Assembly (NCBI GenBank): GCA_964016885.1
Contig: OZ024743.1
Location: 269,018,001 to 269,082,000 of the forward strand
Length of the DNA: 64,000 nt
Direction of reading: 5' to 3'
Origin: Eledone cirrhosa
Lineage: Eukaryota
The notes under the pieces were generated by a model. The model saw nothing but the letters and a program-made list of their open reading frames with translations, made no database searches and was not told the DNA's origin. This document shows, piece by piece, positions 3,134-63,612 of the stretch. The position numbers and the translations under genes were made by a program. The stretch's first letter is position 1. Each line of letters opens with the position of its first letter.

Positions 3134-3184
3134 AGTTTAAGCAAAGAATCGCTGCTTTCACCCTTAACGGGATCTTCTGAAACT
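3134..3184 (-). ncRNA. Type I hammerhead ribozyme-like motif, CAGAAGA core variant
   Basis: Minus strand: AGUUU CAGAAGA U CCC GUUAA GGG U GAAA GCA GCGAUUCUU UGC UU AAACU; all three stems form; U4 replaced by A. Confidence 0.65.
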
Positions 3185-4263
3185 ATATATATATATATAT
3201 ATATATATATATATATATATATATATATATATATATATATTGTATATATATATATATATATATATATATATATATATATATTGTATATATATATATATAT
3301 ATATATATATATATATATTGTATATATATATATATATATATATATATATATATATATATATTGTATATATATATATATATATATATATATATATATATAT
3401 ATATATATATATATTGTATATATATATGTATATATATATATATATATTGTATATATATATATATATATATTGTATATATTGTATATATATATATATATAT
3501 ATTGTATATATATATATATATATTGTATATATATATATATTGTATATATATATATATATTGTATATATATATATATATATATATTGTATATATATATATA
3601 TATAAAAATTAGAATTGTATATATATATATATATATATATATATATATATATTGTATATATATATATATATATATATATATATATATATTGTATATATAT
3701 ATATATATTGTATATATATATATATATATATTGTATATATATATATATATATATATATTGTATATATATATATATATTGTATATATATATATATATATAT
3801 ATATATATATTGTATATATATATATATATTGTATATATATATATATATATATATATTGTATATATATATATATATATTGTATATATATATATATATATAT
3901 TGTATATATATATATATATATTGTATATATATATATATATTGTATATATATATATATATATATATTGTATATATATATATATATATATTGTATATATATA
4001 TATATATATTGTATATATATATATATATATATTGTATATATATATATATATTGTATATATATATATATATATATATATATATATTGTATATATATATATA
4101 TATATATTGTATATATATATATATATATATATATTGTATATATATATATATATATATATTGTATATATATATATATTGTATATATATATATATATATTGT
4201 ATATATATAAATATATTGTATATATATATATATATATATATATATTGTATATATATATATATA
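3185..4263. repeat. (TA)n microsatellite periodically interrupted by TTG
   Basis: Seen directly; source of spurious YI-repeat ORFs. Confidence 0.98.
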
Positions 4264-4264
4264 C

Positions 4265-4385
4265 ATTTCCTTCGAATGAAACAGTTCTAGTCCTGTAGAA
4301 ACGATTTCTTTATTAAATATTGTATACACTTTACTATGTATTGAGTACCTTATTTACTGTGGTTATCCCCGACTGAACCCGGGAT
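4265..4385 (+). mobile_element. Truncated HHR-bearing repeat (family H1), 3' half of ribozyme
   Basis: TTTCCTTCGAATGAAACAGTTCTAGTCCTGTAGAA followed by ATTGAGTACCTTA..GTGGTTA..GAACCCGG, shared with 11448, 17707, 31617, 42336, 56325, 62100. Confidence 0.75.
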
Positions 4386-5309
4386 ACACACACACACACA
4401 CACACACACACACACACACATATATATATAAATATATATATATAAATCTACAAACGCACATGGCGTATTATTATAGCTGATTTGTTTTCCATCTCTTCCT
4501 GTTCCAAATCCCTTTACTACTTGCTCCATGACCTCATTTTTTTTTCTTAAAATAATTTATTTATCTCTCTCATAGAAGGGAGAGTTGTGTGACCGTCAAC
4601 TACATTAATTGCTTCAACTCACTCTCACTCTTAGTTCAAATCCCACCGAAGTCAATTTTGCCTTTCATACTTTCGGGCTCAATAAATAAAATACCAGTCC
4701 AGTACCGAGGTCGACTCTTCCCCCACCGCCTCATTCTCTTTTCGACTTCCTTACCTTTTGTTTCTCTGGAAGCAGTCAGCTGTGTTTATACCTGGAAAGG
4801 AATGGACTCTGTTAGCTTTTAAATATCAGTCACGCTGTGTCGCTATATTCAAGGGCCGATTTAGATGTAAACTAATGGACAGTAGTTTATGGCAAGTATT
4901 TAATTGCTTGCCTTTACTACCTACCTACTTACCAAATTTCATGCCCCGCTGCCTACATACTTACCAAACAGTTTTGAGATCAAAATCTGGTGGAAGCAAC
5001 TTAATCAACACACCGCCAATTCAAACATCGAGTCTATGTTTGTATACAGCTACAATAGTTTAACCCTTTAGCATTTAAACCGGCTGTATCCGGTCAGAAT
5101 TCTCTCACCTCTTTCAGTTCAAACTGGCCGTAACTGGCCGCTCATACTGATGTTAAGGTATTATTCTCAAAATAAATAATATCAAAATCTCATAGATTCG
5201 ATATATATGAGATGAGTATATGGGATAAAGCCTTTATCACGAAAATACAATAGTATATATAGAGTAATGTACACACTAAATGTAGGCTATCTTTTCTTTG
5301 AAGCAAGTG

Positions 5310-5535
5310 TTAGCCATTCAAGCCCCATGACGAATTTCATGATTTTCCCCTACCGTTTACATCCCTCTCTCACCAACTTCCTTGCTTTCATTTCCTCATT
5401 CACCATCTTTAGCAATGTCTTTCTTGGTCTTCCCCTTTCTCCATTTCCTTCCGCATTCATTTCCACCATTCCTCTCATCCGGTCACTTTCATCTTCTTCA
5501 ACACATGACCTAACCATCTCATTCCATTTCTTTTT
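5310..5535 (-). mobile_element. RTE-clade LINE 3' fragment
   Basis: Translation includes EMNAEGNGERGRPRKT, the RTE C-terminal G-R-x-RGRP motif. Confidence 0.55.
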
Positions 5536-60347: not shown

Positions 60348-60968
60348 TACCCACTCTACTACTCTAAGTATTGAGTACTCTGGTGCGTTATGGTCCATCT
60401 GGTTCCTTACCACACCTCCTTCGTTATGTATATATATATATATATATATATATTTATGTATATATCATCACCATCACCGTTTTTACAACATATACATATA
60501 TATACGTATATATATATATATATATGTGTGCGTGTGTGTGTATATATATATATATATATATATATATATATATATATATATATAATGTAAACATCTGTAT
60601 GCGTCATATATATATATATATATATATATATACACATGTATATATATACTATATACAGGCACACACGTGTGAGTATGTATAGTGTTGTAATAGAGACACA
60701 AAATGATATCCCCACCCCACTCTGATGGAGTAGTGTGTTCCTATACGACAACCCAGTTATTCCTCCAGTGAAGTGACATAAAGAAGCCCTGTAGTAAGTT
60801 ATTAAGGTCAATGACAACCTTTTTAGAAACCTTTCACTCATCCATCAACACAGAAAATAACAAAAGTTCATCTTATCATCATCGTCTTCGCACTCTTCTT
60901 CGTCGTCGTCAGCGTTATCATTGCCATCATCATCTTCATTATCGTCGTCGTCGTTGCCATCATCATCT

Positions 60969-61493
60969 TCGTTGTCGTCATCGTTGTTGTCATCGTTGTT
61001 GTCATCGTTGTCGTCATCGTTGTCGTCATCGTTGTTGTCATCGTTGTCGTCATCGTTGTCGTCATCGTTGTCGTCATCGTTGTTGTCATCGTTGTCGTCA
61101 TCGTTGTCGTCATCGTTGTCGTCATCGTTGTTGTCATCGTTGTTGTCATCGTTGTTGTCATCGTTGTCGTCATCGTTGTCGTCATCGTTGTCGTCATCGT
61201 TGTTGTCATCGTTGTCGTCATCGTTGTCGTCATCGTTGTCGTCATCGTTGTTGTCATCGTTGTCGTCATCGTTGTCGTCATCGTTGTCGTCATCGTTGTT
61301 GTCATCGTTGTCGTCATCGTTGTCGTCATCGTTGTTGTCATCGTTGTTGTCATCGTTGTTGTCATCGTTGTCGTCATCGTTGTCGTCATCGTTGTCGTCA
61401 TCGTTGTTGTCATCGTTGTTGTCATCGTTGTTGTCATCGTTGTCGTCATCGTTGTCGTCATCGTTGTCGTCATCGTTGTTGTCATCGTTGTCG
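60969..61493. repeat. 12-bp minisatellite (TCATCGTTGTYG)n
   Basis: Seen directly. Confidence 0.97.
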
Positions 61494-61537
61494 CTGAAAT
61501 ATTCGCCGTCACAACCATCATGATTATCATCACCATT

Positions 61538-61727
61538 GGTGGATTGGCAGTATCGGTAGAGGGTCGGACGCCATGCTTTGACGCATAGAGTTACGGCCCT
61601 TGCCATTCTGAGTTCACATCCCGCCGAGGTTAGCTTTGCTTTTCATCCTTACGGGGTCGATAAAATAAAGTACCAGTAATACACTGGGTAATTGCTGGCC
61701 TTGTGCCCAAAAGTAGAAACAATTATA
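61538..61727 (+). mobile_element. SINE A
   Basis: A/B boxes and core as above. Confidence 0.92.
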
Positions 61728-63538
61728 ATCTTTTGACGTTGTCGTCAGCATCAGCATCATCATCATCATCACTAGCATCCCATTTATCAACAACGTCCTT
61801 GTCATTATCGACATTATCAAGCGCCATTTTACTAGGGTCGTAACAACTTGAGCGATTAAACCGATTTTTTTTTTTTGCCACAGTGAGAGAGAGAGTGTGA
61901 AGAAAAGAGAGAGTATGTGTGAAGAGAAAGGTGAAGGCAAGAAAGAGACAGATGAACAATTCATCCAAGTATTGAATCAGTATTTTATTTATCGACCTCG
62001 AAAACGACAGGCAAGTTTGGCCTCGGCGAGCTTGAACGCATATATATATATATATATATATATATATATATATATATATATATATATATACTCTGCTTTG
62101 TATTGAGTACCTTACTTACTGTGGTTACCCCCGATTGAACCCGGGATAAACATTTATATATATGTATATACATATATATATATATATATATATATATATA
62201 TATATATATATATATATATATATATATATATATATATATATAGAGAGAGAGAGAGAGAGAGAGATTAGAAGGAATACAGTTAGGTTGGCCCTTCTGTCCA
62301 ACGTGTTAAACGACTGCCAACCAATTTTCCTCCTTGTGCATGTTTAATAACAAAGATCCAGCGTTGATAAATTTACGAGGATTGTAACGCAATGTCTTTT
62401 CAGTTGGCAAATAGTTTGCCATGGATTAATTCTTGTCAGTCTTCTTCTATAGCTTGGTTTCACTTTGTGAATTACACACATACACACACAGACACTTACA
62501 CACGTGGACACATGTACATACATACATACACACACACTCACAAAGAGACACGCGCATACACGTGCACAACACACACACACACACACAAACAGACGCATAC
62601 ACAAACCCATACATACACACTCTCACCTTGGTTGACCAGTTGTGTTGCAATCTCTTCCCTTAAGACAAGTAAATAAATTGATTTGTTTGTTTTTTTGTTT
62701 TTATTGTTGCAAGCAGGGAAAAGCGGACGTAATATGATGATGATGATGATATTGTTTTTGCATGTTCTAGAGTTTTCTCCGGCTTCTAACTAATTTTAGA
62801 TATACACGTTTTTTTTTTAATTTTTATTTTAGTACATCAAATCTTTTTTGTCTAATCTTTGAGCTTGACTTTTGCTATCGTTGGTTTAGAATGGTTTGGG
62901 ATAGTCTAGGGTGGCAATGTCTAAAGATGAAATCTTCAAACCTCTGTGTGCTGCTGCTGCTGCTACTACTACTACTACTACTACTACTACTACTACTACT
63001 ACTACTACTACTACTCCATATCCCCCAAAGTGGAGGCTATTTTAGAAAAAGAATAGGTTAATCTCTCTCTCATGTATATATATATGTATGTATATATATG
63101 TATATGTATATATATATATATATATATATATATAACAACAACAACAATGGAGGAGTATATATATATATATATATATATATATATATATATATATATATAT
63201 ATATATATTTGTGTGAGTATAAAACGTAGTCTGTTCTAAGCTCGGGAGCTCATTAGACCGATGCCTTCATGGTGTTCAGCGACTGGGAGTACAAACCTTC
63301 CCACCAGCATGGACACGACGTCGATCCATTGCATGCTCTTTACCCAAGCTACACTTGGTACTCATTTCAGTTGACTGGGCTGGAGCATCATGAAATGAAG
63401 TATTCTGATAAAGAACACAACGCGCCACTCGGTCCAAGAATCTCTCTCTCTCTCTCTCTCTCTCTCTCTCTCTCTCTCTTATATATATATATCAAAATAA
63501 AGATCCGAAGGCATGGTAAAAATTTCCAATCATTTTAA

Positions 63539-63612
63539 TCACGACACATGTTTCAATAAGAGATAGATCGATCGTGTAGCCATGATCGATTATCACTGAT
63601 CTCGTCAGGTGA
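63539..63612 (-). ncRNA. Type I hammerhead ribozyme with long stem II
   Basis: Minus: UCAC CUGACGA GAU C AG U GAUA AUCGAUC..GAUCGAU C UAUC U CU U AUU GAAAC AUGU GUC GUGA; inverted partial copy at ~63638-63696. Confidence 0.82.

Follow-up and report, generated by a model that had tools for sequence, protein, structure and literature searches.

Hammerhead ribozyme motifs in the Eledone cirrhosa genome and their probable origin in Penelope-like elements

Hammerhead motifs in a 64-kb window and in the genome

The stretch of DNA analysed here, referred to as the window, comprises 64,000 nt of the Eledone cirrhosa genome (assembly GCA_964016885.1, contig OZ024743.1, positions 269,018,001 to 269,082,000 of the forward strand) and is AT-rich (34% GC), with about a quarter of it being simple repeat. 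It is located on a 379-Mb contig of a 3.0-Gb genome, contains no long non-repetitive open reading frame (ORF), and had been described in an initial annotation as a dense landscape of about 17 hammerhead ribozyme motifs between (TA)n tracts, with about 15 decayed or half copies in roughly ten families, read as terminal repeats of Penelope-like elements (PLEs) or as retrozyme-like derivatives. Each of the 17 positions proved to be the low end of a hammerhead-like motif, and ten of them (18387, 31741, 31958, 32322, 42416, 42472, 44288, 54581, 54802 and 63539) pass a descriptor of the full type I hammerhead, i.e. canonical core CUGANGA, GAAA, UH site and three stems with a score of at least 9. Five others (21692, 31695, 50257, 52262 and 55358) combine a canonical core with a damaged or truncated stem, four of these having intact relatives elsewhere in the genome and 21692 having diverged relatives only, while the remaining two (3134 and 42153) have a non-canonical core with A instead of U at position 4 (U4A). 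The count of 17 thus holds for hammerhead-like motifs, only ten being intact. A canonical core in type I order is present at 15/17 sites, and is lacking from the two U4A sites and from a further family, D, which has no 5' core. The estimate of roughly ten families was borne out, whereas that of decayed or half copies was too low, as at least 20 decayed, half or tail-only copies were recognised by eye in a self-homology listing which also contains microsatellite noise.

Family C is represented by the U4A hammerhead at 3115-3184 (minus strand, motif 3134-3184), with U-U at 10.1-11.1 and a 15-nt quasi-palindromic stem III, by a second copy at 42134-42241 (minus strand, motif 42153-42201) in which a junction shortens stem I and which is joined to an extension of the family tail, and by a half copy at 43908-43946 (plus strand) consisting of stem III and the 3' end only. 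Family B is found as fold-backs at 31617-31796 (intact motif 31740-31796 on the plus strand, stem-II-damaged motif 31693-31743 on the minus strand), at 42331-42544 (intact head-to-head motifs 42416-42466 on the minus and 42472-42522 on the plus strand) and at 11451-11633 (decay in both arms), as half copies at 4265-4385 (plus strand, without 5' core) and 56319-56444 (minus strand), and as a decayed copy at 17707-17818 (minus strand) with core position 6 changed. Canonical hammerheads lie at 18391-18440 (plus strand, site 18387), the family of which yields Rfam Hammerhead_1 matches elsewhere in the genome, at 31957-32021 (plus strand, site 31958), with a 6-nt palindromic stem III, at 54802-54863 (minus strand), belonging, like 31958, to a cluster of 41 motifs in which stem II covaries strongly, and at 44288-44343 (minus strand), where the family has a single fixed 5' start in 4/4 copies. 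The two family E elements at 32176-32413 and 54443-54736 contain a motif at 32322-32381 (plus strand, with C and A mismatched at 10.1-11.1) together with an inverted copy of the tail, and a motif at 54581-54640 (plus strand) with an inverted half copy, respectively, and the element at 63484-63703 has a canonical motif with a long stem II (63539-63612, minus strand) and an inverted tail copy (63638-63688).

The more damaged sites are the 50257-family motif at 50257-50299 (plus strand, canonical core with the first stem I pair broken) and its decayed copy at 49669-49728 (minus strand), a decayed motif with canonical core and 2-bp stem I truncated against (TA)n at 21692-21748 (minus strand), a canonical core with disturbed stem I at 52259-52320 (minus strand, site 52262), and a minimal-type motif with a 2-nt stem III insert and damaged stem II at 55358-55393 (minus strand), decayed copies of which are located at 6385-6442, 41432-41499 and 47908-47986. 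A family D fold-back at 60237-60424 contains only the 3' half of the hammerhead (GAAA, stem III and cleavage triplet), with further copies at 7359-7402, 35473-35534, 41306-41412 and 44579-44742, and two other fold-backs contain a broken hammerhead related to 54802 (39323-39467) or decayed hammerhead-family sequence (31129-31369). Stretches of the 50257 family were also seen at 3053-3110, 49554-49751 and 50232-50508; its tail abuts the family C copy at 3115, with insertions nested in the same TA tract.

From the control searches, it is clear that the hammerhead motifs in the window are real. The comparison with dinucleotide-shuffled sequence called for by the initial annotation gave ten intact motifs in the window versus 0.03 per 64 kb in 30 local shuffles, and stricter versions of the descriptor gave 4 versus 0.03 and 5 versus 0.17. 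A random sample of the genome, made up of seventy-nine 10-kb stretches at arbitrary round positions on large contigs, contained 70 intact canonical motifs in 790 kb, versus 0, 0, 2 and 0 in its shuffles, and exact family patterns matched the genome 23,679 times for family B (intact core), 22,804 times for family C and 5,652 times for family E, with no matches for the reversed patterns. The alternative of chance matches in AT-rich, microsatellite-rich DNA could draw on the bare CUGANGA cores, which are frequent in shuffles too (18 ± 4, versus 31 observed in the window), and on the Rfam scan, also proposed initially, in which nothing in the window reached the gathering score (Hammerhead_1, RF00163, 34 bits), the matches by E-value being microsatellite noise among the 150 listed of 455. 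Elsewhere in the genome this score was reached by 18/74 scored candidates, close relatives of 18387 among them. With shuffles, reversed patterns and stem covariation (see below) all against it, chance origin was rejected, and its probability is practically negligible.

Several shared properties extend beyond the window. The stem III insert is strictly palindromic in 26/38 clusters obtained from sampled DNA, and in 31/38 with G-U pairs allowed, counts that are partly circular because the descriptor rewards a palindromic stem III; the initial description of a short palindromic stem III was correct for these and not for families B and C, with long quasi-palindromic inserts of 14-15 nt. An AATAAA follows within 38 nt of the cleavage site in 24/96 motifs, versus a 4% background, and (TA)5 lies within 200 nt of 81% of the 96 motifs versus 24% of random non-TA positions (15/17 sites versus 52% of random positions within the window), so that both of these associations stand as first described. 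The 10.1-11.1 pair is G-C in 15 and U-U in 30 of the 96 motifs.

The expected stem covariation outside the window is present in the 31958/54802 cluster and, more weakly, in family B. For 34 of the 41 cluster motifs (the seven omitted being for the most part the second arm of a fold-back), pairing is found in 93.6% of cells and 61 cells are changed on both sides, which none of 500 shuffles reach, with 7/9 stem II pairs covarying and slid controls being 33-56% paired. The 22 chosen family B copies (20 distinct) are 91.2% paired with seven cells changed on both sides (reached by 3/500 shuffles), chiefly due to one compensatory stem I pair, and both sets of figures lean upward because the sets were chosen by a pairing-based filter and the sequences are related. 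The 38 clusters, from 2.05 Mb of sampled genome DNA, have the same core with stems of unrelated sequence. When folded as monomers, only 1/14 motifs beat all shuffles and most fold otherwise than as hammerheads alone, with uninformative z-scores; this and the upward lean speak against the interpretation developed below. Unremarkable monomer folding is to be expected if stem III would form between two copies: short stem III inserts form no hairpin when alone, and for families B and C the stem III self-duplex is predicted at -12.8 and -12.9 kcal/mol, versus -1.4 and -3.6 kcal/mol for the hairpin. Purifying selection on the fold would act on transposing master copies, with inserted copies left to decay.

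The 790-kb sample corresponds to a density of intact motifs of 8.9 per 100 kb (bootstrap 5.2-13.8), and extrapolates to about 2.7 x 10^5 (1.6-4.1 x 10^5) genome-wide. The claim that the window is unusually dense did not survive this comparison: the 200 kb flanking it contain 16 intact motifs, and the probability that a random 64-kb draw from the genome holds at least ten is about 0.13, so a local cluster was rejected. It could still be imagined that the host has co-opted the motifs to process a transcript spanning the window, as they occur on both strands across it and are often followed by AATAAA. With a density that is ordinary for the genome, many decayed copies, and no host gene identified in the window, we consider such co-option very unlikely.

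The link to Penelope-like elements

Type I hammerheads in the pseudo-long terminal repeats (pLTRs) of PLEs, abundant as solo copies, have been described (Cervera and De la Pena 2014, PMC4209133), and abundant PLE-derived hammerheads are already known as a class. The motifs reported there share with ours the type I topology, the palindromic helix III, the many divergent families per genome, the predominance of solo copies ascribed to truncated PLEs, the opposite-strand pairs and the predicted cleavage as dimers. The differences are in number (thousands per genome, with about 9,000 in Xenopus, versus the 2.7 x 10^5 estimated here with a different descriptor), in the G10.1-C11.1 pair, which was noted there as conserved, in the core variant (U3-A8 versus U4A), and in the long stem III inserts of families B and C.

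GIY-YIG-bearing PLE ORFs are plentiful in the E. cirrhosa genome (10,595 candidates, 150 of which were scored), and three window families lie at fixed distances from such ORFs. In family C, the motif lies on either side of intact 709-codon ORFs, roughly 180 nt upstream of the start and roughly 930 nt downstream of the stop, as seen among 20 loci that had been selected for their long open frames (19 frames, with a mean pairwise protein identity of 94%), and seven copies have the pLTR-ORF-pLTR arrangement (L176, L183, L184, L185, L189, L190 and L191). The family B motif lies about 175 nt before its ORF in 2/71 copies examined (L205 and L225), and the 50257 family is located about 200-228 nt past the end of a GIY-YIG ORF in 6/27 copies; in one family that is absent from the window, the motif is about 385 nt past the ORF in five loci. 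A PLE pLTR origin is shown by these offsets for families B, C and 50257, and the copy at 3115-3184 reads as the 5'-truncated end of an autonomous Hydra-type PLE. Three further full-length family C copies (L178, L181 and L182) are cut at almost identical positions, some 30 nt upstream of the start codon.

For the family C protein, 483 relatives were found at E ≤ 1e-20, with 38-57% identity among those listed, many of which carry PF26215 or PF28514, and homologs carry PF26215, PF28514 or GIY-YIG domains; the protein itself had no match in PDB or in a Pfam set without PF26215. It contains RWK-like and DKT-like motifs, a CxCx5C linker and CxxC..E..N..CxH, without CCHH, which is the set found in the Hydra clade, and the family B ORF, which is 50% identical to that of family C, agrees in these motifs over its first 450 aa, the part compared. 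Judged by these motifs, families B and C are PLEs of the Hydra-clade type, and the canonical hammerhead expected of that clade is present in family B, but not in family C. To our knowledge, hammerheads are absent from Naiads. The description of Hydra-clade, endonuclease-positive PLEs (Craig et al. 2021, PMC8557442) agrees with families B and C in the single ORF near 700 aa with reverse transcriptase followed by a GIY-YIG-like domain, in the RW and DKT-like motifs, the CxCx5C linker and the CxxC and CxH around E and N, and in the (TA)n targets, the tail and the inverted 5'-truncated copies, and gives canonical hammerheads as universal in the clade. As its supplement lists an octopus element (Hydra-1_Obim) that has (TA)n targets and whose hammerhead core is canonical, the association of such PLEs with hammerheads is in print; family C differs from that element in having U4A and a protein that, compared by eye, diverges from the first residues. 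The words 'hammerhead' and 'ribozyme' are absent from the main text of a paper on Octopus vulgaris repeats (PMC13282606).

The other window families share the optional tail, the inverted 5'-truncated copy and the (TA)n on both sides, and this common architecture (tail, fold-back and (TA)n target) suggests that they also derive from PLEs. The assignment to PLE terminal repeats in the initial annotation is therefore supported by fixed ORF offsets for three families, and by architecture for the others. The part concerning retrozyme-like derivatives fared less well, as most copies appear to be truncated copies of autonomous PLEs and the window contains no tandem hammerhead array. Retrozymes, to which up to 120,000 copies in axolotl are ascribed and which are linked to the pLTRs of PLEs (Cervera and De la Pena 2020, PMC7229834; Li et al. 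2026, bioRxiv 10.64898/2026.07.22.740005), are like our motifs non-coding with a type I hammerhead, but are defined by tandem motif-bearing units and circular RNAs, whereas the window copies are solo or in inverted pairs.

The competing explanation, that most of the motifs are independent non-autonomous retrozymes copied as ribozyme-cut circular RNAs and borrowing PLE proteins, fits the derivation of animal retrozymes from PLE pLTRs proposed by Li et al. (2026), as well as the tandem hammerhead arrays with about 480-530 nt spacing found elsewhere in the genome (L046:6638-7694, L024:6464-6986 and L119:8568-9562), which are candidate retrozyme-like arrays or multiple pLTRs, the L046 array directly preceding a PLE ORF. 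It would also accommodate the fixed ends of family D, where no common sequence continues past the 3' end among 100 listed of 648 matches, and the single fixed 5' start of the 44288 family. This start, about 65-70 nt before the core in the 44288 family (L022, L028 and L034) and likewise in a cluster of L033, L059 and L073, suggests that these fixed-start families are defined non-autonomous elements. For the motifs at large, we regard the retrozyme explanation as improbable, since families B, C and 50257 belong to ORF-bearing elements, and since the 5' ends of the copies gather ahead of the core and not at the cleavage site.

An altered core, a core-less family and the origin of the short copies

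In family C, core position 4 is A in 78/78 copies collected by homology (median identity 98.6%), and the family pattern with any other base at this position has 227 genomic matches, versus 22,804 for the family. The other bases are roughly equally G, C and T among the 100 matches listed, an even split that would be expected if copies mutated once they had been inserted. When a single core mismatch was permitted, U4A accounted for 4/7 matches in 664 kb, and contigs of four sequencing runs contained no other base at position 4, with X5 and X6 contributing only 1 and 41 pieces and so giving no evidence on other species. The rest of the hammerhead is well formed, with 5-bp proximal and 9-bp distal parts of stem I, a U-U followed by 3 bp in stem II, a long stem III and a UH site; this structure matches that of sister family B, in which U4 is kept, and the hammerhead fold lies 2.8 kcal/mol above the minimum free energy. 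Two features of family C, U10.1-U11.1 and an altered U4, recall active natural variants (U10.1-U11.1 and U4C; Perreault et al. 2011, PMC3088659), although U4A is not named in the text of that paper and no variant described there has become fixed in so large a family (tens of thousands of copies). A natural U4A variant was not found in the literature searched, which did not cover Luense 2017 and several figures that may list further variants.

We think it somewhat more probable that the family C hammerhead is inactive or nearly so, as a saturation scan found low activity for all single mutants of the CUGA turn (Roberts 2023). The opposite possibility, that U4A is an active variant rescued by the long stem I, a dimer-forming stem III or a protein, and that cleavage still matters, could be argued from the intact remaining core positions, three stems and 9-bp distal stem I, from the U4C viroid variant tolerated in vivo (Perreault et al. 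2011), and from the PLE hammerhead of Anolis, for which cleavage requires the protein of the element (Frangieh et al. 2024, PMC11167929). Family C is young, however, so its intact stems need not reflect selection since the U4A change, and an active U4A core strikes us as the less likely of the two, without being far-fetched.

Family D, a short and presumably non-autonomous family, is more abundant than family C, with about 130,000 copies genome-wide (34 in the 790-kb sample), and none of 69 arms inspected has a 5' core. Canonical cores within 36 nt upstream of family D, the range searched, gave only 42 heterogeneous genomic matches, many of them chimeras with other families. The family has fixed ends, and its position and the similarity of its tail to that of family B suggest descent from a hammerhead, although the GAAA may equally represent the loop of a simple hairpin. 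In several chimeras, the 5' core of one hammerhead family is joined to the 5' end of family D, which suggests template switching or targeted insertion between PLE RNAs.

PLE hammerheads have been proposed to cut tandem precursors. Since the U4A family C and the core-less family D have both spread well, cleavage is probably dispensable for copying. For Anolis Poseidon PAc, cleavage was protein-assisted and not required for insertion in vitro (Frangieh et al. 2024, PMC11167929), whereas the evidence here is genomic only; PAc also has an optional tail arising from two start sites downstream of the hammerhead, and AT-rich targets, but its ORF starts inside the hammerhead rather than about 175-180 nt later as in families B and C. 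With more than 20,000 copies of family C, about 130,000 of family D, and hundreds of thousands of solo hammerheads resembling strong-stop products of a promoter that would fire in stem I, we tentatively put forward, at something short of even chances, that PLEs can transpose in vivo without cleavage, unless U4A is a previously undescribed active core.

The ends of the short copies may indicate how they arose. In family B, 34/58 arms not selected on the core have their 5' end at -14 to +3 from C3, and 11/58 pass -20, while in family C 23/70 copies end at -17 to +5. Fold-back turns, searched for between about -40 and +30, lie at -1.5 to -11 in family B (36 arms of 80 copies) and at +1 to -7.5 in family C (14 of 103 copies). 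Among the first 100 of 365 (TA)n-joined family B copies, about 33 junctions are at -10 to 0 and about 13 at the cleavage site, as counted by eye, the latter being confounded by microhomology. In one family B copy (L225), CCAAT and TATA boxes are present 90 and 36 nt before C3, which would place transcription initiation at about -6, where stem I has its first base, and another family has by eye an equal spacing between TATA box and turn. The promoter of Drosophila Penelope is within the pLTR but TATA-less (Schostak 2008).

As 5' ends pile up at the hammerhead, the solo copies may be run-off cDNAs of transcript 5' ends. Transcription would begin in stem I, about 30 nt past the TATA box in family B. 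For one PLE, the reverse transcriptase was shown to initiate within the element RNA, at two positions which delimit the tail (Frangieh et al. 2024), so that reverse transcription here would begin in the tail just downstream of the motif; the enzyme would then run off the transcript 5' end just upstream of it, and the resulting strong-stop-like cDNA would fold back or join the target. Cleavage, where it occurs, would need dimerization via the palindromic stem III or the element protein. Taken together, it is likely that the motifs are the terminal repeats of many PLE families, present genome-wide next to (TA)n in the form of short copies, truncated or folded back, which are probably run-off products.

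Several points weigh against this interpretation. The window contains no PLE coding sequence, and for about eight of its families no recurring fixed distance from an ORF was seen in the DNA examined, with 30 new family E loci having no fixed offset and only one locus (L280) linking this family to an ORF. The putative start site is drawn from motifs and junctions rather than RNA, and stalling of reverse transcription at the folded motif is an alternative that would cluster 5' ends in the same way. The 5' ends of families E and 50257 are more spread, and both arms of each fold-back were counted separately, with master copies included, in the 5'-end counts.

Other repeats in the window and significance of the hammerhead families

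Apart from the hammerhead families, the window contains a very abundant SINE-like repeat, which we take to resemble an octopus SINE and which occurs at 517-1137 and in some 28 further places (in tandem, with a period of 186 nt, at 564-936); tRNA genes within it were rejected, as ARAGORN predicts none. Small MITE-like elements with terminal inverted repeats are located at 2836-2947, 15237-15336, 33663-33762, 50420-50508 and 59838-59906, and short remnants that by eye resemble the ends of LINE ORFs at 48285-48650, with a PHD-finger match, 5350-5754, 36153-36461 and 34845-35183. Two near-perfect palindromes contain no recognised hammerhead (46105-46199 and 16082-16142), the first of these matching a tail that follows another hammerhead family in L182. 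At 30056-30325 (plus strand), an open frame of 89 aa, unremarkable in its composition, may be an exon and has no Pfam match, while long G-rich and GTC-rich tandem arrays at 56900-59300 and 60850-61500 give rise to spurious long ORFs.

What this analysis adds to the known class of PLE hammerheads is their scale in this genome, the U4A core fixed in a young autonomous family, the core-less family D and, as a proposal, the run-off model. The few hundred thousand motifs estimated here go unnoticed at the Rfam thresholds, and copies of them that are folded back resemble MITEs or miRNA hairpins. The sister families B (canonical) and C (U4A) each have ORFs, share their unusual stems, and offer a direct paired test of hammerhead function. 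If true, the run-off model would account for the numerous solo hammerheads in animal genomes without retrozyme circles, and the E. cirrhosa genome would represent a natural experiment on the role of the hammerhead in PLEs.

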